Shown: positions 1 through 38,197 of the stretch, in pieces
How the letters are laid out: each line of letters starts with the position of its first letter
How positions within the stretch are numbered: position 1 is the first letter of the stretch
NCBI GenBank assembly: GCA_002778575.1
Contig: PFBJ01000004.1
Location: forward strand, 2,084-46,550
DNA: 44,467 nt
Reading direction: 5' to 3'
Source: Candidatus Kaiserbacteria bacterium CG10_big_fil_rev_8_21_14_0_10_49_17
GTDB lineage: Bacteria; Patescibacteriota; Minisyncoccia; Phycocordibacterales; JABMNX01
Translations under genes and position numbers: made by a program
The notes under the pieces: model-generated
What the model was told of the DNA's origin: nothing
Database searches by the model: none
The model's input: the letters and a program-made list of their open reading frames with translations, nothing else

Positions 1-233
1 CGCCCGAGAATGGTTGGCGCAAAATCTTCGGATTCTATTTGTCGCCACGGAGCACCACTACCAATGAGCAAATCACCGAGCACAGTAATCCGTACAGGCG
101 CTTCCCCATTTGGGCACAGAAGAGAGGTAGTTTCAGTTTCAGCTGCCTTTATAAATGCAAATATACAAAGAACAAAAATGCCCACAGTAATATACGGCAC
201 AATTGAAGCGCGCGTGCTCGATGTCGTTTGCAT
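1..233 (-). CDS. Partial gene (3' end outside window): membrane-anchored protein, possibly CapA/PGA_cap-family metallophosphoesterase
   Basis: Not in the ORF track. Manual translation from ATG 233 gives MQTTSSTRASIVPYITVGIFVLCIFAFIKAA...VRITVLGDLLIGSG: an N-terminal TM segment plus a GD-hydrophobic motif like CapA motif I. A TGgTATCCT box lies 7 nt upstream. Confidence 0.5.
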   Translation of the reverse strand, partial: MQTTSSTRASIVPYITVGIFVLCIFAFIKAAETETTSLLCPNGEAPVRITVLGDLLIGSGAPWRQIESEDFAPTILG

Positions 234-269
234 ATTGCAAAGGATACCAGAGGTATGCGCTCTCAGCCT

Positions 270-2582
270 CTATTGGTGTGGGCTCGCCGGTTCACTACTC
301 TCCCGACGGCGCATCCAATGGTGGGCGCCGATGGCACCGAGCGCGACCAGTACGAGAATGCCGAGAAAGAGATTCCACGCAAGGAAGCGATTTGCACCGG
401 CCTCCTCCCGACTCGCGTCGGTATACGCAACCTCCCCAGACGCATCAACAGTTGCAATAATTTCTCCCTCTAGAATGCCATTTTCACCGTGCCCGATTGT
501 AATAACTTCAACAGTATCGTTGCGCGTCGTGAGGTACCCATAGAGCGTCTTGGGATCATACGCAATCATATTGTACGGTCGTCGATCTGTTTCCCCCCAA
601 AATGGCAGTACCCCAGACCACGCGAGCGTGAATTCCCCCGAACTCTCATCTTGAATGAACACATCGACAACCTCTTCGCCGCGGTGATTTATGTATACAA
701 ACTCCGTACTCGGATCAAAAAAGATACGGTACGGCTTTCCGTCTATTGGAATTTCCTGCGCGATTTTTCGCGTGTCTGGATTGATAACAATTACTTTTTC
801 ACCTCGCTCAACGGTCACAAGAATGCGATCGAGTTCAGATATGTAACGCACCCAGATAGGGTTTTCTCCAACCGGAATTGTACTAACAAGTTTTTGTGTC
901 GCCGTATCAATAACTGCTACCACACCGCCCGCGTAAAGAGCTGTATAGAGCATACCCCGACGCTCATCAATAGTGTTCACTAGCGGATAGCTTCCATCAG
1001 GTACATCAACTGTCCCAACCACCGTATCTGTCGCCCCGTCTATGACTGTAATTTTCCCTGCCGCCGCGTTCGAGTAATACAGAATGTTTTGTTCCTCAAA
1101 GATGACACCGCCGCGTGGTTGCTGTGCAAGCTGGAGTGTTTTTTGCGGGTATGTGTCATTTGTAATATCAATGACTGCAAGAGTACTGTCGGCAGGGCTC
1201 ACTGCGTAAAGCTTTTGCGTTTTCTTATTTAAGAAAAGATTCTGAATAGCCCGCCCGCTTGGAATTTTCTCAATCGGTTTAAATGTTGTTGCGTCTAGTA
1301 CAGTAATGAAATTGGCTCCAATGTTCGACACAAAGACGCGATTGCCAGGACTATCAATAACAATACTCTGTGGGCTGGAGAAAAATACCTCAGACGTATT
1401 TTGCGCAATCCTAATTGAACGAGCCTCAAGGGAGGTTACATCAACAACAATAATCTCCTCTCCTTGCCACGTTAAAATGTATGCCTCACTAGTCGTATCT
1501 GAGAATACAAGAGATTTCGCGGACATAACCACATCACGTCTGTCAATGATTTTATTTGCAGTCGTGTCGTAGACAATGTATTTCCCCTCTGTTCGATTCA
1601 GTATAAAAAGTCGCTTTAGGTTAGTCGCATACGCGATCTGTATGGGTGCTGTTTCAAAATACGCTGGCGAATTAATATCAATGGTCGTAGTAGTAAAATT
1701 CGGAGCGATAACGGTAATTGTTCCTGAAGCATTATTTGCGACGAAGACATCGCCGGTTTGCTCATCATACGCAAGGTCGGTTGGGTCTGCACCGACCGAA
1801 ACAATTGATACAACAGAGCCCGTATTTGGATCAATAACATACACATCATCTGAACCGGTATGAGAGATATACGCGTAGCCGGTCACATTATTAAGAAGGA
1901 TATCCGTCGGGCTCAAACCAACTGCCACCTCCTTGATTCCTGCAGATGTATCATCAGGGACAATACTCACCGTACCAGCCCCTTCATTGACGCTTACGAC
2001 AGTGTGATCAGCTGTAACGGCAAGGGCGGTCGGCAGTGCGCCAATACGCAGTTGCGCTTGCTGCTGTTCTGTAAGTGAAAGTCGGAAAAGGCTGTCAGCC
2101 CCATATCCCATGTATAACGTGGTCCCGTCTGGTGAAAATGCAAACGACAGTCGCCCGCTTTCGAGACGGCCATTGAATGTGTAGGCCGGGCCACCCTCAA
2201 GAGATTTCGTACCAGCATTGTATACCGCAACACTGAGGCGAAACATCCGATTGTCTGGATCATATTCAAGTACGACAATTCGGTCACCTGTTGACGATAG
2301 GAGTATCTGATACGGGACACCCCTCAATTCCGGAATTTTCTCGCCTTTAAACACAAAAGAATCCTCCCGAATATTGTACCCAGATACTGTGCCGTCCTTA
2401 TTAAGTATGTACAGGAGTGTACCATCTGTACTTACTGCTATATCTTGCGCTCCAGGAATTGAAAGCGCATCCTGCGCATGACTTACCATCGGAGCCATGC
2501 TTAAGAATGCGCCACAGCAAACAGTAATCGCTACGAGAACTGATACGAATCGACTATTGCACATTGGTGCGGAAAATAGCAT
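270..2582 (-). CDS. Large YVTN/YncE-type beta-propeller repeat surface protein with C-terminal TM anchor
   Basis: Many repeats of the type VGxxPxxlA...vyVxNxxSGTvsVID. N-terminal signal ending VSHA-Q; C-terminal hydrophobic helix followed by RRR. Start uncertain (2582 or 2564 preferred over 2642). Confidence 0.8.
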   Translation of the reverse strand: MLFSAPMCNSRFVSVLVAITVCCGAFLSMAPMVSHAQDALSIPGAQDIAVSTDGTLLYILNKDGTVSGYNIREDSFVFKGEKIPELRGVPYQILLSSTGDRIVVLEYDPDNRMFRLSVAVYNAGTKSLEGGPAYTFNGRLESGRLSFAFSPDGTTLYMGYGADSLFRLSLTEQQQAQLRIGALPTALAVTADHTVVSVNEGAGTVSIVPDDTSAGIKEVAVGLSPTDILLNNVTGYAYISHTGSDDVYVIDPNTGSVVSIVSVGADPTDLAYDEQTGDVFVANNASGTITVIAPNFTTTTIDINSPAYFETAPIQIAYATNLKRLFILNRTEGKYIVYDTTANKIIDRRDVVMSAKSLVFSDTTSEAYILTWQGEEIIVVDVTSLEARSIRIAQNTSEVFFSSPQSIVIDSPGNRVFVSNIGANFITVLDATTFKPIEKIPSGRAIQNLFLNKKTQKLYAVSPADSTLAVIDITNDTYPQKTLQLAQQPRGGVIFEEQNILYYSNAAAGKITVIDGATDTVVGTVDVPDGSYPLVNTIDERRGMLYTALYAGGVVAVIDTATQKLVSTIPVGENPIWVRYISELDRILVTVERGEKVIVINPDTRKIAQEIPIDGKPYRIFFDPSTEFVYINHRGEEVVDVFIQDESSGEFTLAWSGVLPFWGETDRRPYNMIAYDPKTLYGYLTTRNDTVEVITIGHGENGILEGEIIATVDASGEVAYTDASREEAGANRFLAWNLFLGILVLVALGAIGAHHWMRRRESSEPASPHQ

Positions 2583-2643
2583 AGATGTATTCCTTTTAGT
2601 GTACCGAAGCTTCAAAAAGGTTGCTACAACAGTTACCACCACC

Positions 2644-3594
2644 CTATTCTAAAGACAGCGAAACTATTGGGAACAGTCGTGCGTGCGGATAATCATCAGC
2701 AGTTTGTTTGTCAGAGATGTGAAAATATTTTCCAATGAGCGCCGTGAGAGTCTCTTCATCCGACGGCGACCAGTTTCGATATGAATGTGCATCTGCGGCA
2801 AGTGACGCGCGAACATCCTCAAGAATCGGGTCACGCAGGTTCTCATCACGAATAAATGCATCAAACGCTGCAAGAGACTGAGGGCGATCATAGTGTCGCT
2901 TTGTCGTGTCAGCAAAATACCAAACACTCTGAAGACGCAACAGTGCACTCTTTTCAACCTCTGTTACGGGAGAGGACAGTATTGAGATAGTCATATCCCT
3001 AAAGTTTTGCTCTTGAAAATAATCATCAATAAAAAAGAGTCGTGTAATTAATCGACCGTCGGGAGCTAAAAGTGATTGCATACGCTGTAGCAACGCTTCT
3101 TCACGAGCCGGTGAGACTTGGTGAAGTGCAACATCGCCAAGAATCACATCAAAAAAGTGATCTGGAAATGGAAGCCGTGTCCAATCATCTTTTATCCATC
3201 GCTCTTTTTCAGGATCAACTAATTCAGTAAATCGGAGCATTGCCGCAGGCATACTCGGAGCAAAATCAGCAACAAAGACATCCGCACCAGTTCGTGCCGC
3301 GCAATCTCGAAGCTCTGGTGTTGAACCGAGTATTAAAATACGTTGCGCAGAGCAGGCTGCGAGCATATCGCGGTAGATACGCAGTTCAGTTACGCTTGGC
3401 CGAATTGGAGGTGGGTACCGCCCCCAGAGGCGTGCCATGCGTTCCCAGTATGCAAGGTGTGCAGTGCCGCGCATGTCTCGCCCGTTCCGCTTCATTAGTG
3501 CAGAGTGTACCGCTGTGTCAAGTTCATATAATCCAGCATCATCGAGGAGTCCGGGAATGCGGCGTATCCAGTATCGTAAAATGGAGTATTTCAT
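2644..3594 (-). CDS. Class I SAM-dependent methyltransferase
   Basis: ILILGSTPELRD (motif I variant), VADFA, DWTRLPFPDHFFDVILGD, LLAPDGRLI. Confidence 0.8.
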   Translation of the reverse strand: MKYSILRYWIRRIPGLLDDAGLYELDTAVHSALMKRNGRDMRGTAHLAYWERMARLWGRYPPPIRPSVTELRIYRDMLAACSAQRILILGSTPELRDCAARTGADVFVADFAPSMPAAMLRFTELVDPEKERWIKDDWTRLPFPDHFFDVILGDVALHQVSPAREEALLQRMQSLLAPDGRLITRLFFIDDYFQEQNFRDMTISILSSPVTEVEKSALLRLQSVWYFADTTKRHYDRPQSLAAFDAFIRDENLRDPILEDVRASLAADAHSYRNWSPSDEETLTALIGKYFHISDKQTADDYPHARLFPIVSLSLE

Positions 3595-3638
3595 ATCTCT
3601 GGGTAGTACACATCGCTATGGTATCATACTGATTACCA

Positions 3639-4907
3639 ATGACGCCGATGAGCCTTGCGGAGATAATTCGCTACACATGGGAACATTCTTCATTTTATCG
3701 AGCATTTTGGGGTGAACATGGATTTTCCCCGGAGCAATTCGGTACTGTAGATGATCTCCACGCTATACCTATCCTAACCAAGGAAAGGCTTGCACAGGTA
3801 CCGCTTTCTGAGCGGACAATTAAAACTCCTGGGACTGCACACTATTTGGCCGATATTTCAAGCGGGACAACTCAAACCCCGCTTGTTGTCCTAAAATCTA
3901 ACCACATTCCGTCTGCACACTTTGCGTATGCACAAGCGAGAGCTGGTGCCTGTCAGTCAGCTATGGTGCTTCGCCCGGGTGTATTTGGAACTGCATTCCT
4001 CCACGGTGGTATGAATGCCGGCTACTTCCCACGCGGATCAACAGTGAGTATGGGAGACCCGCGCGATATCCCCTTCTCTGCTTACCTCGCAAAAGAGATT
4101 GCCATGGACTTCCTCGTTGCGCGCCCATCTGATGCAATTCGTCTCGCCCACGCCCTTACAGTTGTTGGCTATTCACCTGAGCGAGTCACAACAATCTGCT
4201 GTTCAGGAGAGCCTCTAACCACGGCGAGCGCGTCGCTCTTATCAGACTTATACCCAACCGCAACAATTCTCTTTGCCTACGGAATGACTGAGTGTCCAGC
4301 ATTCCTTGGTCTGCGTACTTCAAACTGCACGACACTCAGCACGATTGGTCCTGGTACATATCACCTTGATACTGATGCGTTTTACTTTGAGGAGTATGAC
4401 GGTCGAGCACTTATAACGACACTGGTACCGCTACCGACACCACTTATCCGATATGACACCGGCGATCAAATACAAATGAGTAAAACTGTTTCGTGCGCGT
4501 GCGGGTATACATCGGGGCTCATCGGAAGTGTTGGGCCTCGCACGACGCATGCGTATAAAATAGGCGGATGTTCCTTTTCACTTACCGCAGTACGTCAAGC
4601 TTTAGCGACTTTAGAGGGTCTCGTTACAGACGATTTTCGATTAGAGATAGAGCAGGTGCGCACACCGGCAGACACTCTTGCGCTTGATATACGCCTTGCC
4701 ATTCGGCCAGCAGGAGTAGCAACTCCGCTTCTCATTGAATCAGTACTGCAGGCGCTCAAACAGATGCCGGTACAGAAAACGCGCTCTCTCGGTGATGCTC
4801 TTGAAAGCACGCTCATCCGAAACCTTGAAATTATTCCTGAAAGTACAGTATCGGGCGCCGCATTAGTACCACCTCAGGAAATTACCAACGCATTTAAGCA
4901 AACCTAG
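3639..4907 (+). CDS. PaaK/phenylacetate-CoA-ligase-like adenylate-forming enzyme
   Basis: SFYR...DLHAIPILTK, SSGTTQTP P-loop, SGEPL, YGMTE, PLIRYDTGD, CACG. Confidence 0.8.
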   Translation: MTPMSLAEIIRYTWEHSSFYRAFWGEHGFSPEQFGTVDDLHAIPILTKERLAQVPLSERTIKTPGTAHYLADISSGTTQTPLVVLKSNHIPSAHFAYAQARAGACQSAMVLRPGVFGTAFLHGGMNAGYFPRGSTVSMGDPRDIPFSAYLAKEIAMDFLVARPSDAIRLAHALTVVGYSPERVTTICCSGEPLTTASASLLSDLYPTATILFAYGMTECPAFLGLRTSNCTTLSTIGPGTYHLDTDAFYFEEYDGRALITTLVPLPTPLIRYDTGDQIQMSKTVSCACGYTSGLIGSVGPRTTHAYKIGGCSFSLTAVRQALATLEGLVTDDFRLEIEQVRTPADTLALDIRLAIRPAGVATPLLIESVLQALKQMPVQKTRSLGDALESTLIRNLEIIPESTVSGAALVPPQEITNAFKQT

Positions 4908-5101
4908 TTTCGGTGTGCGCGCCACGCACGTGCCAGATGCACGATGAGTGTCAGCACGACCAAAACAAGGACGCCCCACCATACTGCCGTTGCAACATCA
5001 ATATGCGCAATAATACATTTCTGCGCAGGCGTAAGCGTGGTCGGCGATGCGCCTTCAAGACCGCGCAACACGATGAGTTGACTGCTTGTTGTGTTAGTCA
5101 T
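4904..5101 (-). CDS. Small single-TM membrane protein (65 aa)
   Basis: ATG overlaps the stop of the upstream HTTM gene (coupling); C-terminal hydrophobic helix followed by a basic tail. Confidence 0.5.
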   Translation of the reverse strand: MTNTTSSQLIVLRGLEGASPTTLTPAQKCIIAHIDVATAVWWGVLVLVVLTLIVHLARAWRAHRN

Positions 5102-6392
5102 AGATATTTTCTACTGGATAGCCGACGACTTCCGGTTCATCTGAGTGAGTTTTAATCCAATCATTGTGTGTCAATGGACGGTATTGAAGAGCGCAAAGCT
5201 CGTCGGTGTCTACGATTCGCAAAAACGGCCCCCCGTTTATTGAGTGGTCGAATGTCCACGCGGCACTCTGAATATGTGCAGCGTTGCGTTTGCAAAATGC
5301 ATTAAGACGGAACCAATAGCGGTATGGCTCACACCGCGCTCGAGCATTCGCACTTTCATTGTATATAACCTGTTCACTACCGTCCGTAAATGTAATGCGT
5401 GCTGTCGAGATGCATTGATGGTTCGATTCAAACATATACAAGCCGTATTTATTTCCCTCGAGGGTTAACTTTTCATCACCAGGAATAAAAAGTGGCAAAG
5501 ACTGCATGCATACGAGAAGCCCTACAAGCACCCAACCAGCAATAGAACGACGATCAAATGGGATTGGTGTCTTTCGATAAAAAAGCCCGAATAGAATGAT
5601 GAGCGTCGGAAGAACAACTGACGGATAGTGATACTTCACCAAGATTCCGGAGTAGAGGTGGAATGCTATAAAAAATACGAGGACGAGGCGTTGCACTAGG
5701 CCCGGCCGAGAGAGGAGGAACCACGCGCCCACCATTTCCATAAAAATGACAAGATTTGTCCAGAATGGAATCGACCAATCAGGGAAAAGTGGCAATCCGG
5801 TTTGAAGCGCTGAGAAGTATGTCCCTGCCACCCAGGCTGGGTGAATTTTTGCCACCGTAGAGAGCGCATAAAATAAAACGAAACAGAGCTTCAAGAAAAA
5901 CTCTTTATGGGGCAAGAACAATAGAATGGTAGTTAATACAAAAAGGTAATAATCGTAATTGCCACCAAGCTGACCTGAGAGAATAAATGTCGCTAACGCA
6001 TGCCAAAGGTACATAAGGACAATAGACATGTGCGCAAGGACCCACTCTTTGCGATACATAAGATAAACCGCAATAAGCATGAGGCCGAAAAGCCCCATAT
6101 AGAGAACCGTCTGAGAGTATCCATTTGGTAGACCGTGCAAGAAGAGCCAGTCCGTACACCCCTGAAAGTACGGTCGGCATACAGCGTATCCTTTCTCAAC
6201 AGCATCCGCAGTGAGAACAGTGCTTGAAACCCAAAAGCTGAATGTCGTGAAGTATGAAAAAAGTGAAGCGCCGAAGACCCACTTCAATACGAGCTCTTTT
6301 TCAAGTTCTTGGATTGAAAAAAAGCGTTGGTATGCATGAATAATGCGTTGATCGAACGTCGTTGGGAACAGTTTCTTAAGGAGTTGCGTCAT
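5094..6392 (-). CDS. HTTM-domain, vitamin-K-dependent gamma-carboxylase (VKGC)-like membrane protein
   Basis: Multi-TM. Motifs STVAKIHPAWVAG (cf. VKGC/HTTM AKL..DW..G), E...LL...R...FH, EGNKYGLYMF, and soluble C-terminal SINGGPFLRIVD...YRPLTHNDWI (cf. VKGC S.N.R.Q.lvDP...w.Pf....W). Confidence 0.75.
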   Translation of the reverse strand: MTQLLKKLFPTTFDQRIIHAYQRFFSIQELEKELVLKWVFGASLFSYFTTFSFWVSSTVLTADAVEKGYAVCRPYFQGCTDWLFLHGLPNGYSQTVLYMGLFGLMLIAVYLMYRKEWVLAHMSIVLMYLWHALATFILSGQLGGNYDYYLFVLTTILLFLPHKEFFLKLCFVLFYALSTVAKIHPAWVAGTYFSALQTGLPLFPDWSIPFWTNLVIFMEMVGAWFLLSRPGLVQRLVLVFFIAFHLYSGILVKYHYPSVVLPTLIILFGLFYRKTPIPFDRRSIAGWVLVGLLVCMQSLPLFIPGDEKLTLEGNKYGLYMFESNHQCISTARITFTDGSEQVIYNESANARARCEPYRYWFRLNAFCKRNAAHIQSAAWTFDHSINGGPFLRIVDTDELCALQYRPLTHNDWIKTHSDEPEVVGYPVENIYD

Positions 6393-6442
6393 ACGATTTC
6401 TTGCATTATGTCAGAAAATGACACGAAGAGGGAGCGTGAAAT

Positions 6443-6470
6443 AAAGCCGGTCGCATTCGCGACCGGCTTT
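6443..6470. terminator. Intrinsic terminator hairpin after the AstA-like gene
   Basis: AAAGCCGGTCGC-attc-GCGACCGGCTTT. Confidence 0.75.
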
Positions 6471-6473
6471 TCT

Positions 6474-7223
6474 CTATACCGCCTGCTCAAGCGCATCCGC
6501 CATAAACCGCTTGAGATTCGGAAGATGCTCGGAAATGGTCACATGGAATGCGTTAAGCGATGTTGGGACATACCGATGTGTTTCTTCAATTATTCCCCAC
6601 TGGAGGAAAAGCTCGAATGGTTTACGCAGAGGCGGAAACGCGCGCCCGCGCGTTTCTGTTATGACAGCCTGAGGCAATCTAGAAAGTGGGATTGGTTCAC
6701 GTGGCCATTTCTTCCAGATTGTACGCTCCATTGTTCCGAACGGGTTCTCTAAAAGTGCTGCGTACGGAACTCCAGTTACTTCAGCACCAACGCGATTCCA
6801 AAAAAGTGGGTTACCATCGGCGTCTTTGATTCCTGCCATACGCGCCCAGAGGCCACGGAGTGTTGCAGATGATTCGAATGTGTCCCACTCACGGAGAATA
6901 AGTCCAGCCAACTGCTTCAGTACACCAGAGCCGCGATACTTGGAATGGATGCACCACCCGCCAGTTCCGGTATACGGTCCATCATTATGAATCTGGAGGT
7001 GCTCGTCTTCAATCGTCAGGTACACGAAATCTGAAAAATGGGAAATCCATCCGAGCGCGACGAGACCGTCCGTATCACGAATGCTGGAAAGCACCATTTT
7101 CTTTTCAAGATGGTCGCACAACTCTACAACAGTACGCGGGTACAGCAATAGACCGCCAGCGTTCTGAGCGTAGAAAGCTAAGGCCTCTTCTGCCTGATTC
7201 GCAGAGATACGACCCAAGAGCAT
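6474..7223 (-). CDS. GNAT-fold acyltransferase related to arginine N-succinyltransferase (AstA-like)
   Basis: CIHSKYRGSGV acyl-CoA-binding motif A. ARMAGIKDADGNPLFWNRVG and WPREPIPLSRLP resemble AstA AEMRG..D..G.SPFW..LG and MPkyPIY..LL. SD AAGGAG upstream. Confidence 0.65.
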   Translation of the reverse strand: MLLGRISANQAEEALAFYAQNAGGLLLYPRTVVELCDHLEKKMVLSSIRDTDGLVALGWISHFSDFVYLTIEDEHLQIHNDGPYTGTGGWCIHSKYRGSGVLKQLAGLILREWDTFESSATLRGLWARMAGIKDADGNPLFWNRVGAEVTGVPYAALLENPFGTMERTIWKKWPREPIPLSRLPQAVITETRGRAFPPLRKPFELFLQWGIIEETHRYVPTSLNAFHVTISEHLPNLKRFMADALEQAV

Positions 7224-7257
7224 CGAACTGTCTCCTTTTAATCACTTCTCTGGGCGA

Positions 7258-7286
7258 ATACTAGTACCGCAACGCGACTGCGTCAA
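7258..7286 (-). promoter_or_regulatory. sigma70-type promoter for the AstA-like gene
   Basis: TTGACG-17 nt-TAGTAT on the minus strand. Confidence 0.6.
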
Positions 7287-8425
7287 TCACGCCTGCCGTA
7301 AAATGACCGAATAGCACCCGCCACCCTACTGACATCCCGCAATGACATCGAGTCAAAAAGTGGGAGCGAGAGAATACTTTCTGTGGCATTCTCTGCAACT
7401 GGAAAACTTCCCGCGTCCCAATGACCACCAAAAGCCTCGAAATATGGCAATGGAATTGGATAGTGCACAACTGGCTGTAGTCTCGGTATATGAGTAAACT
7501 CCCTCTTAAGATGGGTTAGCAGTGCGTCACGCTCCGCCGCCTGCACAGTATATCGGTACCAGCTCCGCACAGTTCCTTCAGCTTCAGTCGGTAGAGTAAT
7601 TTCTTTGATGTCTCGGAGTCTGTCAGTGTAGCAACTGGCAAGAGTGCGGCGATACGACAACCAGAAGGGTAAGAATGGGAGTTTGGCGTGAAGAATCGCA
7701 GCGTGCAACTCATCGAGCTTCCCATTTGTCCCGACATGTGGATACTCGTAAAACAGACGTGACGAACCATACTTCCGCAAGCGAGCCGCCAAATCCCGCT
7801 GTGAAGGATCGCGCACAAAAAGAGCGCCGGCTGCTCCTGGGCTTGAGAGGAGTTTCGTTCCTGAAAAACTAAAGCACCCAAAATCGCCAATAGTACCAAC
7901 CGGGCGTTGACTGCCAGAACTGTCAATCGAAGCACCGAGTGCTTGGGCAGCATCTTCGATTACCGGCACCTTATGCGCTCGGGCAATATGTACTACGCGT
8001 TCTATTTCACGCGAGGGTTGGCCAAAGAGGTGCGCGATAAGTATGGCACGTGTGTGTTTTGTAATTGCTCTCTGAAGCTGATGAGGGTCAAGTGACAGAT
8101 CATCTGATTGCACATCAATAAAAATGGGAGTTGCACCGAGCCATACAATTGGAGCAACGAGTGCCATGCATCCAAATGCCGGCACGATAACCTCATCACC
8201 ACGCCCTACACCGAGTACTTTAAGTGATAGTTCTATTGCATCACTACCACCACCAACACCAAGTACAGGGGCGCGCAAAAATGCAGAGAAATCCTGCTCG
8301 AAGCGACGAGTTTCAGTTACTTCATACCCATATTCAGCGCCACGAGAGAGCACGGCGCATGCTGCGTAAAACGTTAAGATGTGTTGCCGAACAGCAGTAC
8401 CTCGGCGACCAAAGACATACACCAT
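7283..8425 (-). CDS. DegT/DnrJ/EryC1/StrS PLP-dependent aminotransferase
   Basis: GSDAIELSL..LGVGRGDEVIVP, HLFG, VIEDAAQALG, FSFSGTKLL (PLP lysine), LSLPLF. Confidence 0.9.
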   Translation of the reverse strand: MVYVFGRRGTAVRQHILTFYAACAVLSRGAEYGYEVTETRRFEQDFSAFLRAPVLGVGGGSDAIELSLKVLGVGRGDEVIVPAFGCMALVAPIVWLGATPIFIDVQSDDLSLDPHQLQRAITKHTRAILIAHLFGQPSREIERVVHIARAHKVPVIEDAAQALGASIDSSGSQRPVGTIGDFGCFSFSGTKLLSSPGAAGALFVRDPSQRDLAARLRKYGSSRLFYEYPHVGTNGKLDELHAAILHAKLPFLPFWLSYRRTLASCYTDRLRDIKEITLPTEAEGTVRSWYRYTVQAAERDALLTHLKREFTHIPRLQPVVHYPIPLPYFEAFGGHWDAGSFPVAENATESILSLPLFDSMSLRDVSRVAGAIRSFYGRRD

Positions 8426-8479
8426 TACCGGTATGATAGTCTACCGCTTAAAAAAGAACCAGAGGATCAGGAGAGTGAG

Positions 8480-8779
8480 CTAACTGTCGCCGTCGCCGCT
8501 ACCGTCGCCACCACCACCGTCGCCGTCGCCACCCCACCCGTACCATCCGTACCATCCTTGAGAATAGTAATTATTTTGAGAGTAGTAGTTGCCTTGTGAG
8601 TAGTAGTTGCCTTGTGAGTAATAGGAACTTTGATTGTATGGAACATCGGCATGCGCTTCCTCAATGAATCGCGGATGTTCACCATCCTTAAAAAGTTTCT
8701 GCCCCAGGGCAATAACTGAAACAACAATAAGCGCACCGCCGAGTAAAAGAAATCGAGGTGTGTCTCTTAGGAGTTTCAT
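8480..8779 (-). CDS. Small exported/anchored repeat peptide (99 aa): hydrophobic leader, AHA-D site, YYSQGN-type hexads, GWYGWYGW, Gly/Asp tail; candidate precursor peptide
   Basis: ORF translation; the repeats are in-frame 18-nt units with synonymous variation between copies. Confidence 0.75.
   Translation of the reverse strand: MKLLRDTPRFLLLGGALIVVSVIALGQKLFKDGEHPRFIEEAHADVPYNQSSYYSQGNYYSQGNYYSQNNYYSQGWYGWYGWGGDGDGGGGDGSGDGDS
8538..8620. repeat. Coding tandem repeats in the peptide gene
   Basis: GAGTAGTAGTTGCCTTGT x2 exact (8580-8615) plus diverged flanking copies; CCGTACCAT x2 (8538-8555). Confidence 0.9.
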
Positions 8780-8814
8780 TACCTATATTGAAGCACAGAA
8801 ATGGCTTTGGTAAA

Positions 8815-9630
8815 ATGACAGATGTGAGTAATCAAATTTCGCTCCTCTTACCGCGATACGCAGGAATCGCATTCGCGCTCTTTATTGCTGTATGTGTTTT
8901 TCTGTACACAGCTCCCGGGCACGCTGCGACAATTGCCCTTCATTACCTCCACACACCTCGCCTCGCTTTCATGATTGATACGAATGCTGCGCGAGCTTTT
9001 GAAATTGGCGACTATTACTTTGAGAACCCGGCCGGCCCATATAGGCCAGATGCGGCAGCTAAGTATTTTGCCCGTACGCTATCTCTCGATCCAACACATC
9101 CACATGCCCACCACCAACTCGCGCGCATCTTTTTCTTGCGTGGCAATTTTGACAAGGCACTTGCAGAGATAAACGTACAGATTGAATTACATGGCGAATC
9201 GAGCATATCCTCTTATTACGTTCGAGGCCTTATTCTTGGCTATATGGGCCAGCCTGAGCAAGCCGAACAAGACTTCCGCCACTACCTCTCTAAACGAGAG
9301 CGAAACTGGGGTGCGTACAATGATATAGCATGGATTTACTTTCAGCTGGGAAACTTTGAGCAAATGCGGGAAGAAGCAGTGTACGGACTTCGTATTGCAC
9401 CAAATAATCCCTGGCTCTTAACAACGTATGGAGTTGCTGAAATGAATTTAGGCAATAAAGCGGCAGCAAGAGATAGTTTTGAAGCCGCACTTTCTGCTAT
9501 TGTTACTACTACGCCAGAGGAATGGTCCCGGGTAAATCCAGGTAACGACCCAGCAATTGCCGAGCGCGGGTTGGAAGAAATGCGTCGAACTATTGAGAAA
9601 AATATCGATTTACTTATCACCACCTCCTAA
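8815..9630 (+). CDS. Membrane-anchored tetratricopeptide-repeat protein
   Basis: N-terminal TM; TPR-like helices (AHHQLARIFFLRGNFDKALAE, SYYVRGLILGYMGQPEQAEQDF, AYNDIAWIYFQLGNFEQ). Start 8815 ATG or 8824 GTG. Confidence 0.8.
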   Translation: MTDVSNQISLLLPRYAGIAFALFIAVCVFLYTAPGHAATIALHYLHTPRLAFMIDTNAARAFEIGDYYFENPAGPYRPDAAAKYFARTLSLDPTHPHAHHQLARIFFLRGNFDKALAEINVQIELHGESSISSYYVRGLILGYMGQPEQAEQDFRHYLSKRERNWGAYNDIAWIYFQLGNFEQMREEAVYGLRIAPNNPWLLTTYGVAEMNLGNKAAARDSFEAALSAIVTTTPEEWSRVNPGNDPAIAERGLEEMRRTIEKNIDLLITTS

Positions 9631-9667
9631 CTGTCAGGCAACCTTAATCCGTTATACTAACATTGTC

Positions 9668-10342
9668 ATGGCATTACGACCATTAATGACTCTATTCGCA
9701 CTTGGTGCGCTTGTCATAGCTCTATCAGTTGCAATTGACACGGGCACTACAGGTAGCATGCGTGAAGCGGGACAAACGTCTGTTGAAGTTGGTGTCGCGG
9801 CCACGTCTCCACACGGAGATGGATATGTTATTCCTGCTTCGTGCGGCTCTCCACATACTGGTGATTTGTGTACACCTCCAACATTTAACTGCTCCCCTGA
9901 CGCTATAAACGAAGGCGCGGCCATCACGTGCTCGTGGCAGTGTGATAGCTCCACATCAAGCGCCGGGGTAAACTTTTCAACCGGTGGCGCCACCTCTGGC
10001 TCAGTAAATCTCACACCAAACACTAGCACCACATACACTGTTCAGTGCTCAAATGGCGGACAAGCGTCAGAGAGTGTCACAGTTCTTAATCCCGACCTCT
10101 CAATTACTGCAACTCCAGTACAAGTACGCTTCGGTGACACATCGACTATTGTCTGGGAAGCGACTGAAGTAAACAGTTGTTCGGTAACTGGTCCGAATTT
10201 CAGTGCATCTGGAACCTCTGGCAGTCAAGGTACTGGCTCAGTGACTCAAGAGAGCACGTATACGCTTTCCTGCTCAACCGACGGTGGTACGGTTTCAGAA
10301 TCAGTAACCATACGACTTATTCCGGCATTTGAAGAATTTTAG
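9668..10342 (+). CDS. Secreted Ser/Thr/Cys-rich protein with two Ig-like beta-sandwich repeats
   Basis: N-terminal TM; two repeats of T(i/c)xW...C...NFS.SG...SG...TYT(v/l)xC; C-terminal IPAFEEF. TATACT 9 nt upstream of ATG 9668. Confidence 0.7.
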   Translation: MALRPLMTLFALGALVIALSVAIDTGTTGSMREAGQTSVEVGVAATSPHGDGYVIPASCGSPHTGDLCTPPTFNCSPDAINEGAAITCSWQCDSSTSSAGVNFSTGGATSGSVNLTPNTSTTYTVQCSNGGQASESVTVLNPDLSITATPVQVRFGDTSTIVWEATEVNSCSVTGPNFSASGTSGSQGTGSVTQESTYTLSCSTDGGTVSESVTIRLIPAFEEF

Positions 10343-10391
10343 AAATCTCCTAAAGGAGCGCGGGTAAAAATTTCCGCGGCAAGAATGCATG

Positions 10392-10423
10392 GAGGCGCCT
10401 TCTGAAAAGGCGCCTCTTTTTTT
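10392..10423. terminator. Terminator hairpin between convergent genes
   Basis: GAGGCGCCTT-ctgaa-AAGGCGCCTC followed by T7. Confidence 0.75.
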
Positions 10424-10733
10424 ATCGGTGCCGGCGGTGATGCCGACCACGCCTGTGATGATGTCGCCAATAGTGACGGCGGCGATTCTGCCATTGGTAT
10501 TGCTGAATGATACCTGGCACGACACGCAGGAACATGTCGAGTGCTGGGTTGTACTCGTCGTTGCGGTAGCGATACCCGTGCCAGCGCCGGTAACACCGGC
10601 GTACCCACCCGTAGTAGCTGTGGTAGGTGTTGTAGCACCGCATGTAGTAGCCGGCATTAGCCGGAGTGGCTGTCACTGGAGCAAAAACAAGCAAGCCAGC
10701 AACAATAGCGCACGCACTGAGAATCCGCTTCAT
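10422..10733 (-). CDS. Small secreted Tyr/Arg/His-rich cationic protein
   Basis: Signal peptide ending TPANA; strong SD AAGGAGG; one Cys pair; RRRHYWRHHHRRGRHHRRHR tail. Confidence 0.7.
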   Translation of the reverse strand: MKRILSACAIVAGLLVFAPVTATPANAGYYMRCYNTYHSYYGWVRRCYRRWHGYRYRNDEYNPALDMFLRVVPGIIQQYQWQNRRRHYWRHHHRRGRHHRRHR

Positions 10734-10807
10734 CTCATTCCTCCTTCAATCTCAGCTCTTTGTTAATCGTACCTTTTTAGGAAACTTGTGGTAGTTATTT
10801 ATAAACA

Positions 10808-10836
10808 TTGACCTCGATACATTTCTCAACTACAGT
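10808..10836 (+). promoter_or_regulatory. sigma70-type promoter
   Basis: TTGACC-17 nt-TACAGT. Confidence 0.55.
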
Positions 10837-10863
10837 TGCCCGAGGTTAATTAGGGAGTGAAAA

Positions 10864-11118
10864 ATGAGCGTTTCCCCTTGCGCGGGGCACCCGTGCGATT
10901 GCAATTCCTGCGTCTTTTCAAGTACTGGCATCACGAAACCGGCGCACAGCACAGTGGTAGTTGCGCGCGAAGTGTACGGTTGTGTTAAGGGTTTCGGTGA
11001 TGTACTCCACAATGGCAGTACCCTCGGGCAGATGCGAGGCAAGGCATTTCACCCCATCTCGCCTGAAGGTGCAGCATTTCTGCGAGAGAGTAAGAATCCG
11101 CTTGCCAGACACGCATAA
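10864..11118 (+). CDS. Hypothetical 84-aa protein with N-terminal Cys cluster
   Basis: Framed by a promoter (10808), SD-like GGGAG and a terminator (11124); CAGHPCDCNSC. Confidence 0.55.
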   Translation: MSVSPCAGHPCDCNSCVFSSTGITKPAHSTVVVAREVYGCVKGFGDVLHNGSTLGQMRGKAFHPISPEGAAFLRESKNPLARHA

Positions 11119-11123
11119 GTAAT

Positions 11124-11152
11124 ACGGCGACCCCTTAGGGTCGCCGTTTTTT
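11124..11152. terminator. Terminator hairpin between convergent genes
   Basis: ACGGCGACCC-ctta-GGGTCGCCGT followed by a T-run. Confidence 0.75.
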
Positions 11153-11690
11153 ATGAATTATTCGCCACAGTATCACTTCGGGGGAACTTCCCGAGAATCA
11201 CACGAATTCGTGATCCGCGAATTCGTGCCTCCAGTTTTTTCCAGTCCGCATTGTGCATGCGAATACACCCAGAGGAGACACGTTTGCCAATCTTGCTTGG
11301 CTGATTGGTGCCATGGATGCCAACCATATTATCCCCACGTCCCGAGAACCGGAGAACGAAGAAACCGACTCCGAGCGGATTTGCCGGCCCAGGCGGCACT
11401 GCTCTGCAGTGGCCGGTGCGCCGGCAGATATTGGCAGTTGGCACCCACGTCGGCCGGTACAGTGTGCGCACAACGCGCCCCACGGCCGGTAAGTAGCTTG
11501 GCATATAGTACGGAAGCGCCACCGGATAGCGGGCAACTTGCTGCCCATCGCTGTCATGAAGTGTGAGGAAACCCTCCGGCCCCTCATAGTGCACGCGAAT
11601 CGTATAATCCCAAGAATCGGCAATCACAATCTGTGGGAAGAGCACAAAAAGGAAAATTGCTGCAACAAAAAGTACGATTCGACGCATCAT
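11151..11690 (-). CDS. L,D-transpeptidase (YkuD/ErfK family)
   Basis: Signal peptide; PTWVPT, VPPGPANPLG, GIHGTN...SSGCIRM catalytic His/Cys motif; SD GAGGAGG. Confidence 0.9.
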   Translation of the reverse strand: MMRRIVLFVAAIFLFVLFPQIVIADSWDYTIRVHYEGPEGFLTLHDSDGQQVARYPVALPYYMPSYLPAVGRVVRTLYRPTWVPTANICRRTGHCRAVPPGPANPLGVGFFVLRFSGRGDNMVGIHGTNQPSKIGKRVSSGCIRMHNADWKKLEARIRGSRIRVILGKFPRSDTVANNS

Positions 11691-11795
11691 CTCCTCCTCT
11701 ATTGATGGTCTGTATCGACCCTACCAATAGAGAGGCCTCGTGTCGAGTGATATACTCTCACTATTGTAAGTAAAACCTATAGCGTAGGACTATTT

Positions 11796-12245
11796 ATGTA
11801 CACAAAGCAAGGCATCGCATTGTTTCTTTTCTCTCTTGCCGGAACCCTTTTTGCAGGCTACCTCTCTATTGGCAAGTTAATCTCTTCCCGGTGTGTCATT
11901 GACTCGGGGTGCTCATATTTCCTTGGCTATCCTACGTGCTACTACGGCTTTGCACTGTTTTTTACGCTTTTTATCCTCTCTTTCATTACCCTTATGAACG
12001 GTGCGCGCGCCTCACAAAACCTTCTAAAGTGTATCGTTATTATCGCGGGTATTGGTATTCTCTTCTCTGGGTACTTTAGCGCGATCGAAGTCACTCCAAT
12101 GATTACTGAGGGTATTCGCTACAGCCTCTTCTTCCCAACGTGTGTGTACGGATTAGTCTTCTACATACTCATTGCTTGCACAGCGTGGCAAAGAAAGAGC
12201 ACGAAGAAAGCAGAGAATCCTCAGCCTGTTCAGGACGAGGTTTAA
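11796..12245 (+). CDS. 4-TM membrane protein, VKOR/disulfide-formation-like
   Basis: G.LFAGYLS, loop C-x5-C (CVIDSGC), FLGYPTCYYG, GILFSGYFSAIE. The canonical CxxC is replaced by PTCVYG. Confidence 0.55.
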   Translation: MYTKQGIALFLFSLAGTLFAGYLSIGKLISSRCVIDSGCSYFLGYPTCYYGFALFFTLFILSFITLMNGARASQNLLKCIVIIAGIGILFSGYFSAIEVTPMITEGIRYSLFFPTCVYGLVFYILIACTAWQRKSTKKAENPQPVQDEV

Positions 12246-12362
12246 GCACACCACCTTGACACAATAGGGGCGATTGTGTTAGGGTACACGAGTATCAAAG
12301 ACGCGTGGATGAGGTCGTATCCTTCCTGACGCTTTGATTTTATTGAAAAGCAATTCGACACA

Positions 12363-12686: not shown

Positions 12687-13082
12687 GTGACCATTCGGAA
12701 GCTATTCTTTGGAGCGATTGGCGCCATGGCAATCGTTCTCTCCACCCTGACAGCAACCGCAACACCGGCGCGTGCCGACTGCTACCGTCCCAACTGCTGG
12801 GGCGCAATCGCGTTTAACCGCTACACGCATTCGTGGGGACGGGCGCTCAACTACCCCAACATGTGGAGTGCCCGCAATGCGGCCAACTACCGCTGTTCTG
12901 GGAGCTGCATCGTCATTCACTTCCGCAATGCGTGCGGGGCGGTGTACGTCTCCGGAAATGGTTACGGATGGGCTACCCGCGCTTACCACAACTCGGCCAA
13001 AAGCGCCGCGTACTGGTCCTGCCGGCAGCGCAACGGCTACTGCAGTTTCCTGCTTTCCGGATGCACCGCACGGCAATTCTGA
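12687..13082 (+). CDS. Secreted Cys-rich DUF4189-like protein
   Basis: Signal ending TPARA; WGAIA...WG.A.NY..A..AA..C...C...FRNACGA...A..AA..C....C; SD GAGGAGG before GTG; TTGACA at 12629. Confidence 0.8.
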   Translation: MTIRKLFFGAIGAMAIVLSTLTATATPARADCYRPNCWGAIAFNRYTHSWGRALNYPNMWSARNAANYRCSGSCIVIHFRNACGAVYVSGNGYGWATRAYHNSAKSAAYWSCRQRNGYCSFLLSGCTARQF

Positions 13083-13168: not shown

Positions 13169-13627
13169 TTACTTTTGTTTTTTGGTTTTTGTTTTTGTCT
13201 TCTGTTTTCGTTTTTTAAGCTTTCCCTTCCCGTCACAGTGCCCGCAACTGCAGTGCGGAAAGACGTACTCCTTACAGTATTCCTTCCCGTAATCATACGA
13301 GAGCTCCTCCCCCGCTTCAATCGTTCGTTTCGCGTAGATAAAGACCCGCCTGCCGTCTATCTCTGCCTCGCAATTGGGTTTGCAGGAATGGTTAATGTAG
13401 CGCGCCTTGTTGTAGCGCGGTGCACCGTCTATCGTCCACTTTTTATCTATATCGAAAAGGTACTTTGTGCCTCGTTCATCTGCTTCTTCTGTCGTAATAC
13501 GCTCGCCGCCGTACTCAATAACGAATGCGTCTTTTTTGATTGGTACACTCGTAAAAAGCCCGAGACCAGCGGGTGGTTGTGAGCGCTTTGTGTGCAATCC
13601 TTTATGCTCCTTCCGGAATTTTTTCAT
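13169..13627 (-). CDS. SET-domain protein-lysine methyltransferase
   Basis: GLGLF, FVIEYGGE, ARYINHSCKPNC, GEELSYDYG, post-SET CSCGHC; Lys-rich tail. Confidence 0.9.
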   Translation of the reverse strand: MKKFRKEHKGLHTKRSQPPAGLGLFTSVPIKKDAFVIEYGGERITTEEADERGTKYLFDIDKKWTIDGAPRYNKARYINHSCKPNCEAEIDGRRVFIYAKRTIEAGEELSYDYGKEYCKEYVFPHCSCGHCDGKGKLKKRKQKTKTKTKKQK

Positions 13628-14285
13628 TATTCTGAAATCGCTTTATGTGCACGATAAGCATAATAGCAGTAAATGCTGAGGCTCCAAGAGTAATGTGCCA
13701 CAGAAGATGCGTACCAAATGGCACATACTGGCACACCAGAAAATCAATCGTACGCATCGCCGCTGCGAAAAGTGCAAGCGTGACGGCGCAAAGACCAATT
13801 ACAGCGGCGCGCTTCCCGTACTTCCGCAACGTACCCCACAAGAGAAGAATGCTAAAGAAAAGAATAGAGCCGTAGAGGACGACGAATGGAGAGACTGTGC
13901 CAGTAAATGAGAGGGATGAAAATGCAAAAGCCTGAATGCCGAGAAGAATGAGTGGCGCCAAGAAGCCGATGAGCCGCCCCGAAACGAGCGCACCCCAACA
14001 GAACACGAGAAAGAGCAGGAAAAGCACCCCAGGAAATACATCAAAAGACAGCGCCCAGCCGCTACGAAGCCCGTGCCAGAGCGTACTGCCAATGCCGGTA
14101 GCTAAGAGAAGGAAAGAGAGGATCCAAAGCTCCCACGCGCGTGGGGACGTGCGCCAAACAATGTAAAGCGCCAAGAGGCCGAGGAACATTGTCGGAAAAT
14201 TTGAAATAGTATTTATGAATTCCACAGGAAATGAATACACTCCCGTAAGCGGCGTCTCGCAATACTGCGGTCCAGTATGTGGCAT
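13602..14285 (-). CDS. CREST-superfamily 7-TM hydrolase (alkaline-ceramidase-like)
   Basis: YCE...EFINTISN, GIGSTLWHG (SxxxH), D, HLLWH (HxxxH) zinc-binding motifs. Confidence 0.75.
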   Translation of the reverse strand: MPHTGPQYCETPLTGVYSFPVEFINTISNFPTMFLGLLALYIVWRTSPRAWELWILSFLLLATGIGSTLWHGLRSGWALSFDVFPGVLFLLFLVFCWGALVSGRLIGFLAPLILLGIQAFAFSSLSFTGTVSPFVVLYGSILFFSILLLWGTLRKYGKRAAVIGLCAVTLALFAAAMRTIDFLVCQYVPFGTHLLWHITLGASAFTAIMLIVHIKRFQNNEKIPEGA

Positions 14286-37504: not shown

Positions 37505-38197
37505 CTACTGCCAGCCCTTCTTTTCTATCCCCGCCTCAGCGGCGGCCTGCTCGGCTTCTTGTTTGCTCTTCCCGCCACCGCGAGCAACTTCCTCACGACC
37601 GAGAAATACGCCGATAACAAATTCCTTATCGTGATCCGGCCCACTTTCTCGGATAACACGATACTCTGGTGTTGTATTCTCTTGTTCTTGTGCTTTTTCT
37701 TGGAACCTGCTCTTCGCGTCCTGCCAGAGCCGCCCCTCCACAATTTCTTCCGTGCGACCAACGAGGGTCCGTGTTATGAATCCTGCGGCAGCATCGTAGC
37801 CTTGATCTATGTAAATTGCACCGATAACCGCCTCAAATGCATTTGCTAAAATATACTGCCGTGCGCGTCCAGTGTCGCGCGCCTCGCCTTTTGAGAGTAA
37901 GAGATGTTCATTGATGTTTATCTCCTGAGCCGCTGTAGCAAGGGAAATAGTATTGACCAACGCGGCGCGTACCGCTGTAAGTTCCCCCTCGGTCTTCTCG
38001 GGATATTTTCTAAACAGATAGTCCGTTACCGCCAATTCAAGTACCGCGTCTCCGAGAAATTCGAGGCGCTCGTTATGCTCGAGGTTCGCGTCACGGTGCT
38101 CATTGATGTACGAGCGGTGTGTGAGCGCGGTGCGCAAAAGTGAGGCGTCATCAAACGTGACACCTATGGAAGATTCGAAGTCATTTTTCTCGTTCAT
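37505..38197 (-). CDS. rnc: Ribonuclease III
   Basis: ALTHRSY, NERLEFLGDAVL, dsRBD with GPDH. Confidence 0.98.
   Translation of the reverse strand: MNEKNDFESSIGVTFDDASLLRTALTHRSYINEHRDANLEHNERLEFLGDAVLELAVTDYLFRKYPEKTEGELTAVRAALVNTISLATAAQEININEHLLLSKGEARDTGRARQYILANAFEAVIGAIYIDQGYDAAAGFITRTLVGRTEEIVEGRLWQDAKSRFQEKAQEQENTTPEYRVIRESGPDHDKEFVIGVFLGREEVARGGGKSKQEAEQAAAEAGIEKKGWQ

Follow-up and report, generated by a model that had tools for sequence, protein, structure and literature searches.

What does an enzyme predicted to share the fold of the human vitamin-K-dependent carboxylase GGCX do in a bacterium of the candidate phyla radiation (CPR), and does it work with a VKOR-like gene that lies nearby? 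The question is raised by a stretch of 44,467 nucleotides (here called the window) from Candidatus Kaiserbacteria bacterium CG10_big_fil_rev_8_21_14_0_10_49_17 (contig PFBJ01000004.1, positions 2,084 to 46,550), in which a first-pass annotation of the bare sequence had seen a possible bacterial vitamin-K-cycle module. We tentatively propose, as a working reading that may well fail in one of its parts, that the enzyme is an extracytoplasmic peptide maturase, which would form a carbanion on Asp or Glu and then carboxylate it, and that the VKOR-like gene is an unrelated neighbour.

The source genome comprises 643,379 bases on 20 contigs and is rated 100% complete. The sequencing runs that best match the window DNA are groundwater metagenomes, and none of the matching runs listed is of RNA. 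In run X1, a possible source sample, a single contig covers window positions 200-12323 with one differing letter, at 7088 within an AstA-like gene (A in the window, C in the X1 contig), and the layout of the enzyme and VKOR-like genes is therefore not an assembly join. The argument turns on the following genes:

5094..6392, minus strand: predicted HTTM/VKGC-fold membrane enzyme of 432 amino acids (aa), core of the module, corresponding to the GGCX transmembrane (TM) domain plus the first luminal-type domain.
4904..5101, minus strand: single-TM partner of 65 aa, overlapping the enzyme stop by 8 nucleotides.
8480..8779, minus strand: precursor-like peptide of 99 aa, the candidate substrate, assigned by the leader profile of its family.
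8758..9630, plus strand: membrane-anchored TPR protein (Pfam TPR), conserved module member, divergent from the peptide gene.
9557..10342, plus strand: secreted Cys-containing protein of no known family (no Pfam match), a loose module associate.
11796..12245, plus strand: atypical VKOR-family protein of 149 aa with four helices (PF07884, 32.1 bits against a cut-off of 27.5), judged to lie outside the module.

The motifs that the first-pass annotation reported in 5094-6392, an HTTM lysine motif and VKGC-type C-terminal motifs, are present in the open reading frame (ORF), at residues 181-190 (Lys182, Trp187, Gly190), 312-321, 384-395 and 406-412. Of its two family assignments, profile searches upheld VKOR for 11796-12245 and failed to return HTTM or VKGC for the enzyme: Pfam gives no such match, PF05090 and PF22777 both missing the window protein, and NCBIfam gives no match. 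Among 61 homologues, PF22777 matches only four, below threshold. Searches of PDB sequences by phmmer and hmmsearch, with the window protein, a close alignment (A1, 120 homologues), a wider one (A2, 118 rows) and an HTTM protein from locus L013, found no GGCX match. Homologues number 529 at E<=0.001, with 590 cluster representatives, and nearly all those with names come from CPR (Paceibacteria/Parcubacteria).

Structure prediction places the enzyme more precisely. Its AlphaFold2 model (pLDDT 94.1) retrieves human GGCX at Foldseek ranks 1-15 (best E 7.8e-8; TMq 0.52-0.56 for ranks 1-14), and VIA superposes model residues 32-425 on GGCX 60-533 with Z 18.7 and rmsd 3.4 Å over 360 aligned residues, the best unrelated chain reaching Z 6.5. 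The match to the human structure by which the annotation had proposed to judge its assignment was thus obtained by both methods. In the ESM Atlas, the enzyme reaches a TM of 0.75 to a cluster labelled HTTM plus VKGC-lumenal. On this modelling, 5094-6392 has the human GGCX fold over the TM domain and the first luminal-type domain. The chain stops at 432 aa, near the end of the alignment (GGCX 533-535), and nothing aligns beyond GGCX 535; consequently, domains LD2 and LD3, which form the GGCX propeptide-binding site (PMC13187478; here and below, papers are cited for what their accessible excerpts say), appear to be missing. The region equivalent to GGCX 374-418 is retained, whereas viral epoxidase-only homologues are reported to lack it (PMC13486548). 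Six cysteines are conserved (72, 79, 327, 354, 367 and 400), none in a CxxC motif, and they probably form extracytoplasmic disulfides. Going by the model, this is a divergent subfamily that resembles a vitamin-K-dependent carboxylase without being shown to be one. Two further observations concern its relatives. A second, Pfam-positive HTTM protein of another subfamily adjoins the enzyme in four loci (for example L002 6361-7944 and L013 4143-5645), and two or more enzyme paralogues occur in loci L009, L012-L014, L038, L059 and others.

Active-site residues were tentatively mapped to GGCX from the spacing of residues named in papers and partly from the human sequence in general, not by residue-level superposition. 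On this mapping, conservation is highest on the quinol side: K182 (the K218 position) is conserved in 100% of A1 and 95% of A2, W187 (W223) in 100% and 94%, H245 (H287) in 100% and 95%, and M320 (M401) in 100% and 88%. Y256, at the F299 position, is Tyr in 99% and 78%, and N145 (N159) is kept in 100% and 56%. The spacings agree with those of K218-W223 and H287-N290 as the GGCX excerpts give them (PMC12647623; PMC13187478), and K182/W187 aligned, if weakly, with the same motif of the Pfam-HTTM protein.

Gene neighbourhoods were surveyed in a census of 93 related loci plus the window (86 groups at 90% identity), and profile searches used 87 enzyme-centred loci totalling 881,779 bases, of which 42 reach 10 kb and many are short. 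BLAST clustering finds the 60-70-aa single-TM family in 44 of 93 loci, and an HMM trained on those 44 finds it in 77 of 87. Fusions join the partner to the C-terminus of the enzyme in L133 and L057; in L137 the fused protein is a TPR protein and in L056 a Cys-rich anchored one. The partner HMM also matches 41 of 270 homologous proteins, mostly within C-terminal extensions, with some spurious TM matches. From these fusions, the 65-aa protein appears to behave as a split-off C-terminal piece of the enzyme. The TPR protein has tblastn matches in 32 of 93 loci (best 52% over 221 aa), and its cluster covers 27 loci including the window; the secreted Cys-containing protein has matches in 9 of 93. 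Other families counted in the census are a PRTase-PQQ propeller (38 loci), a 390-aa TPR-like protein (19), YcaO (18), a Cys/His-rich anchored family (15), nitroreductase (14), DCC1-like (9), rhodanese (7) and DsbA-like proteins (4). Profiles built from the related loci for PRTase-PQQ, YcaO, nitroreductase and rhodanese find no match in the source genome. The window locus is a YcaO-free version of the module, isolating a core of enzyme, partner, peptide and TPR protein, and the module is patchily distributed in CPR. As a side observation, the commonest large partner of the enzyme is the PRTase-PQQ-propeller fusion (L056 8230-9978 and 37 other loci), absent from the source genome.

The peptide is the candidate substrate. 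It runs from a basic N-terminus through a TM helix, a linker and an A-x-A-D-x-P site (A42-D45), which are the traits common to its family, to Tyr/Gln hexapeptide repeats and a Gly/Asp tail; it has no Cys and is the only family copy in the source genome. The leader profile identifies 44 peptides in 38 of 94 loci, window included, and in 27 of the 47 loci of at least 10 kb; locus L047 was excluded from alignment A6, its cut having been placed at the wrong site. The cores are 32% Gly, 18% Asp, 14% Ser, 5% Cys, 3% Glu and 3% Thr, and 40 of 42 distinct cores have at least three Asp/Glu. Gly precedes 49% of the acidic residues and Asp 27%; in the peptides of four loci, Gly-Glu replaces Gly-Asp. Cores from YcaO loci hold 0-22 Cys (median 2.5, n=16) and the others 0-4 (median 1, n=27). 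Two targets for the enzyme had been suggested at first pass: the Gly/Asp tail endures, as a conserved feature, while the Glu pair E40/E41 sits in the leader, is not conserved and is an unlikely target.

Across genomes, the peptide family tracks the enzyme, in keeping with the annotation's idea of the neighbouring peptide as a plausible substrate. We drew on 300 genomes of the same order, 400 of the same class and a pattern-selected set of 10 further enzyme-bearing genomes; the 16 enzyme-positive genomes are metagenome-assembled and possibly incomplete. The peptide is present in 9 of the 16 and in 1 of 144 enzyme-negative genomes (Fisher p 7e-10, kinship uncorrected). Of four weak matches among the enzyme-negative genomes, three turned out to be other proteins and were rejected; the fourth, on a short piece of sequence close to the end of a contig in G467, was accepted as a genuine peptide. 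We consider it probable that the peptide is the substrate of the enzyme. Two related ORFs are recorded alongside. At 7620-7901 (minus strand) of L141, a contig with N runs around that position, another secreted ORF has Tyr-Tyr-x-Gln hexapeptide repeats like those of the window peptide and adjoins genes for a repeated domain of no known type. In L025 (4097-4852, plus strand), a module peptide runs straight into what we take, by its motif, to be a Hint-like autoprocessing domain, which suggests C-terminal cleavage or attachment.

How might such a module work? Together with the 65-aa TM piece that completes it, the 432-aa protein would be the outward-facing maturase of a CPR peptide module. The N-terminal anchor would insert the peptide with its Gly/Asp tail outside, and cleavage at A-x-A/D is possible. 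If the topology follows GGCX, the luminal-type domain with its paired cysteines would lie on the same side. Lys182, stacked on Trp187, would act as a base on bound quinol as Lys218 does in GGCX, and the resulting base would take a proton from a tail Asp (Glu in some relatives). The carbanion would then capture CO2, adding 44 Da per site and yielding a polyanionic, probably Ca-binding peptide. Carboxylation might fall on the alpha position or elsewhere, given the alpha-carbon precedent of MloH. More speculatively, the anchor and the TPR protein may stand in for the propeptide-binding domains of GGCX, and quinone would be obtained by scavenging, with no reductase dedicated to its recycling. The fate of the carbanion, CO2 capture against reprotonation or elimination, would decide the function. 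Granted that the peptide is the substrate, we judge carboxylation slightly the better bet.

Several points weigh against this proposal. Positions that matter for Glu handling in GGCX are changed, both in the Glu clamp (Asn159/His160/Tyr395), where Asn is kept, and among Asp263, His287 and Asn290 on the quinol side, where His is kept: within A1, E219 (the D263 position) is Glu in 70% and Gln in 29%; S248 replaces Asn at the N290 position in 99%; Tyr or Phe (Y146) replaces His at the H160 position; and N314 replaces Tyr at the Y395 position in 97% of A1 and 24% of A2. Activity losses are reported for H160A, Y395A, N290A and most D263 changes in GGCX (PMC13187478; PMC13486548; PMC12647623). On this mapping, the quinol/base half of the active site appears largely conserved and the Glu-binding half rebuilt. 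The Lys and Trp are also conserved in the HTTM-DCC1 plus DUF5819 system (bioRxiv 10.64898/2026.08.19.745780) and, being common to other HTTM proteins, are a mark of the superfamily, not diagnostic of carboxylation. Further, GGCX prefers a hydrophobic residue before Glu (PMC12647623), unlike the Gly- or Asp-preceded acids here. The peptide association has its own caveats: of the nine positives, eight were found by profile, all eight having supplied training rows for it, and one (G605) by rule; the peptide is undetected in 7 of 16 enzyme-positive genomes, two of which carry the enzyme on contigs shorter than 7 kb. The weakest point is the supply of quinol and O2: searches of the source genome turned up no UbiA-family gene, COX1 or NDH-2, and its sole Pyr_redox_2 gene resembles thioredoxin reductase. 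Its canonical VKOR is a hint that the membrane receives some quinone.

The best-surviving alternative keeps module and substrate and changes the chemistry: the Lys base would take an alpha proton, leading to epimerisation (L to D) or dehydration with no CO2 and perhaps no quinol or O2. We think this a possibility to be taken seriously without favouring it. Such an enzyme needs no quinone, which fits a genome without UbiA; the altered acid clamp of GGCX and the Ser content of the cores agree with it as well. SdpB is an HTTM protein. HTTM-domain genes are the assumed maturation enzymes of linaridin clusters, whose products carry dehydrated Thr/Ser (PMC9927463) and D-residues (PMC10373908; PMC10849128), and SdpAB mature a secreted peptide (PMC6818787). 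Linaridin maturases (CrdG-type with LinL) and Bacillus SdpAB/YitPO likewise encode an HTTM membrane protein with a ribosomal precursor peptide. They differ from the window module in that here TM and luminal-type domains share one chain, and the precursor is acidic and signal-anchored against Thr-rich and hydrophobic; among the window ORFs scanned, no LinL/SdpA or hydrolase gene matched Pfam or NCBIfam. Against epimerisation or dehydration stand the structural neighbours in the Atlas, which are HTTM plus VKGC-lumenal clusters, the poor alignment (hhalign probability 3%) to the Pfam-HTTM protein of L013 that we labelled Sdp/linaridin-like, and the conserved feature of the peptides, which is acidity, Thr being scarce.

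A second alternative, which we find rather improbable, directs the GGCX-like quinol chemistry at a small molecule, glycan or lipid and leaves the peptide as a carrier or co-inherited surface component. The substrate could, for example, be the product of the first four of these genes, which accompany the enzyme in the window together with the fifth:

7283..8425, minus strand: DegT/DnrJ pyridoxal-phosphate-dependent aminotransferase, between the peptide and enzyme genes (PF01041, E 4.9e-82).
6474..7223, minus strand: AstA-like acyltransferase (arginine N-succinyltransferase fold), directly upstream of the enzyme (PF04958, E 3.3e-4, below cut-off; 0.91 to AstA clusters in the ESM Atlas).
3639..4907, plus strand: phenylacetate-CoA-ligase-like adenylating enzyme, convergent on the 65-aa gene (NCBIfam FlxY/PaaK-type, E 3e-16 to 4e-13, below cut-offs).
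2644..3594, minus strand: class I S-adenosylmethionine-dependent methyltransferase, membership uncertain (PF13649, E 4.5e-8).
270..2642, minus strand: secreted YVTN/YncE beta-propeller of 790 aa, membership uncertain (Pfam/NCBIfam).

The peptide, DegT, AstA-like, enzyme and partner genes are consecutive on one strand with gaps of 54-81 bp, and the aminotransferase, combined with the acyl-CoA ligase and the N-acyltransferase, would make sense as a pathway to an N-acyl amine. GC content reveals no island boundary in the window, and a promoter scan of the region stayed at chance level. These five genes, which here take the place of the PRTase-PQQ, YcaO, nitroreductase and rhodanese genes, are locus-specific, with tblastn matches in none of the 93 related loci; for the four tailoring genes this stands against the peptide's presence in 37 of 93. 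In favour of a non-peptide substrate are the genomes in which the peptide is undetected, the proposal that viral homologues serve lipid desaturation (PMC13486548) and a homologue in Agrobacterium tumefaciens G3/79.

That homologue (WP_174004527.1, plasmid NZ_CP115844.1) is full-length, 47% identical and keeps all 18 residues checked. It sits in a nonribosomal peptide synthetase (NRPS) cluster: two NRPS genes, pabB, chorismate mutase, prephenate dehydrogenase, leuCD, three TauD dioxygenases, cysDNQ, a desaturase and a DCC1-like gene, the last adjoining the enzyme. No peptide, small partner or TPR gene lies within 12 kb, and this counts with the points against our proposal. The setting recalls that of MloH in malonomycin biosynthesis and in this respect speaks for our proposal; it argues for tailoring chemistry, and it shows that the peptide is not the sole context of the enzyme. 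Agrobacterium uses ubiquinone, so the cofactor need not be vitamin K. As an aside, the cluster genes (NZ_CP115844.1 77143-123030; L139, L140) suggest p-aminophenylalanine synthesis and sulfate activation.

Thirdly, the enzyme might be a quinone-linked membrane redox protein of MauE/DoxX type, oxidising or rearranging thiols of Cys-rich exports with DCC1-, DsbA- and rhodanese-like helpers; we regard this as unlikely. Its feature matches in the ESM Atlas are clusters in which 15-34% of members bear MauE/DoxX labels, six of its cysteines are conserved, and helpers occur in some loci and beside the Agrobacterium copy. The Cys/His-rich anchored family of 15 loci also counts here, with six copies on contig C6 of the source genome. 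Yet the window peptide contains no Cys, CxxC is absent from the enzyme, whose cysteines resemble structural extracytoplasmic pairs, and the helpers are missing from most loci and, except for DsbA-like genes and one weak DCC1 match, from the source genome, which already has a canonical VKOR and two DsbA-like genes. The C6 copies (positions 1-7000, L141) stand in tandem as membrane-anchored proteins together with a TPR gene, and the members scanned have no Pfam match.

This leaves the VKOR-like gene. The annotation described it accurately, with four helices, a loop Cys pair (C33/C39) and no CxxC. Its start and that of the enzyme gene, on the opposite strand, are 5,404 bp apart, with seven ORFs and two terminator-like hairpins between the genes:

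11124..11147, both strands: terminator-like hairpin with a 10-bp stem (pattern match), between the cluster and the VKOR-like gene.
10391-10417, plus strand: second terminator-like hairpin (pattern match).

Such hairpins number 13 in the region against 9.6 +/- 3.4 in shuffles. The VKOR-like family comprises 98 proteins, 97 of them aligned (A3), in which C33, C39, C48 and C116 are invariant; any CxxC occurs in 1 of 97 rows, the CxxC region holding C116 alone. Only six residues separate C39 from the next motif, and there is no cap helix. VKORs head the Foldseek list for its model, though weakly (E 0.012), and VIA gives Z 12.2 to VKOR, tied with unrelated bundles. It shares with Synechococcus VKOR (PDB 3KP9/4NV2) a PF07884 match above cut-off, a predicted four-helix bundle and the loop Cys pair, and differs in lacking CxxC and the cap helix with its conserved Ser/Thr, the invariant C48 and C116 standing instead; CxxC and the conserved Ser/Thr make up the canonical active site (PMC4555120). 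C48 and C116 might form a redox disulfide across helices. Helices 2 and 4 each begin with a similar Pro-x-Cys-x-x-Gly motif that holds one of the two, and the gene has no consistent neighbours. From its sequence, we take it to be a separate, atypical CPR VKOR subfamily.

The source genome encodes a canonical VKOR with CxxC on contig C16 (86.7 bits) and has two DsbA-like genes, while DsbB was not found in it; the C16 protein is the natural DsbA partner. The further suggestion that the VKOR-like protein partners the DsbA-like protein at 18222 gained no support, with no DsbA-like match flanking 19 loci of this VKOR type (flanks of about 1.5 kb each side, one of 20 kb). By eye, a CxxC protein adjoins the atypical VKOR in L105. 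Near the window copy lie a small secreted Arg/Tyr-rich ORF of no family (10422-10733, minus strand) and a YkuD transpeptidase (11151-11690, minus strand), both in 0 of 93 enzyme loci, and a DUF4189 protein (12687-13082, plus strand). Further along the window, a SET-domain gene (13169-13627, minus strand; PF00856, E 8e-26) overlaps one for a ceramidase-family membrane protein (13602-14285, minus strand; PF05875, E 7e-13), and 38194-39114 (minus strand) encodes a NusB-NUDIX fusion.

Does the atypical VKOR travel with the enzyme? The annotation had proposed phylogenetic profiling of the two genes as a check, and its outcome went against a link. Its profile, which is blind to canonical VKORs and missed that on C16, found it in 0 of the 87 enzyme-centred loci, and tblastn in 0 of 93; canonical VKOR was checked in 77 metagenome loci through selected ORFs only. 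Among the 300 order genomes, 6 have the enzyme, 14 the atypical VKOR and none both, a result of little power alone with 0.28 expected by chance; among the 400 class genomes, the enzyme occurs in 0 and the atypical VKOR in 12. PF07884 matches occur in 137 of the 300; of the 6 that carry the enzyme, just one has such a match, at a distance of about 146 kb. In the family to which the window belongs, G657 carries the enzyme without the VKOR and G509 the VKOR without the enzyme. The 10 further enzyme genomes include two with canonical and four with atypical VKOR, on other contigs or about 86 kb off; any VKOR is present in 5 of the 16 enzyme genomes, and neither type was detected in 11. A weak PF07884 match in G406 was dropped, as it fell outside any VKOR-like ORF. 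One figure speaks for linkage and so against our proposal: atypical VKOR in 4 of 16 enzyme-positive genomes against 14 of 300 in the background (naive binomial p 0.005, kinship uncorrected). All four come from the pattern-selected set, and G407 and G408 have the same VKOR neighbours, so that the cases are not independent. In all probability, the VKOR-like gene is unlinked to the enzyme and a chance neighbour.

A vitamin K cycle, with vitamin K epoxidation coupled to carboxylation by the enzyme and the VKOR at 11796 dedicated to reducing the epoxide, can claim the 5.4 kb spacing on one contig, the 4 of 16 genomes against a 4.7% background, the adjacent VKOR and carboxylase-like genes of giant viruses (PMC13486548) and the thought that an unusual VKOR could take an unusual substrate, but is very improbable in the face of the profiling, of a VKOR-like protein without CxxC and of the absence of epoxide-reductase activity in the bacterial VKORs studied (PMC4555120).

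How does the module compare with known systems? Human GGCX (PDB 9WFC, 9BVK and others) is alike in the TM and first luminal domains, the Lys-x4-Trp base site and the His and Met positions. It differs in that identity is 12-14% in structural alignment, that the H160, Y395 and N290 positions are changed in the window enzyme, that a separate 65-aa TM partner is present here, and that the candidate substrate is Gly/Asp-rich against a Gla domain. MloH, the Streptomyces paromomycinus enzyme for which alpha-carbon carboxylation of Asp is reported on the way to malonomycin (PMC12186529; PMC12647623), is likewise a bacterial VKGC homologue in a natural-product pathway, and the 47%-identical Agrobacterium relative of our enzyme has its place among NRPS genes as well. 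It is, by description and not by sequence comparison, a GGCX orthologue with conserved active-site residues, whereas the window enzyme belongs to a divergent subfamily and is tied to ribosomal peptides. The HTTM-DCC1 plus DUF5819 split systems are also predicted bacterial GGCX-like assemblies with conserved Lys/Trp and a DCC1 association; their split point is another, and the accessible description includes no peptide family. Giant-virus modules of VKOR with a carboxylase-like epoxidase/desaturase share the proximity of the two genes, but adjacency recurs there (4 of 5 viruses) and occurs once here, besides the region kept here and lost there. CPR clusters for linear azol(in)e-containing peptides/thiazole- or oxazole-modified microcins (LAP/TOMM; Sharrar et al. 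2020, PMC7298704) resemble the related loci in YcaO, nitroreductase and similar small peptides, unlike the source genome, where the YcaO, nitroreductase and PRTase-PQQ profiles find nothing and the peptide has no Cys; the HTTM enzyme is absent from the accessible part of that description. Among the titles and abstract openings covered, with most subscription journals outside reach, no description of this enzyme subfamily or peptide family appeared.

In the literature covered, the reaction of MloH is the only one assigned to a bacterial relative of the vitamin K carboxylase. The claim of a bacterial vitamin K cycle fell on profiling. What remains is a subfamily that escapes Pfam and whose candidate substrate is easy to point to; with a near relative of the enzyme in an Agrobacterium strain that is in culture, the question lends itself to direct test. 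If the enzyme is an epimerase, GGCX and linaridin chemistry would be joined by one carbanion mechanism. We hold it doubtful, though worth stating, that CPR bacteria without quinone synthesis carboxylate Asp or Glu of exported ribosomal peptides through a divergent vitamin-K-carboxylase fed with quinol from a host or the environment. If true, this would be a new peptide modification and a use of quinol by organisms unable to make quinones. Such carboxy-aspartate-rich peptides would be a bacterial counterpart of Gla proteins, with membrane tethering replacing the propeptide site.

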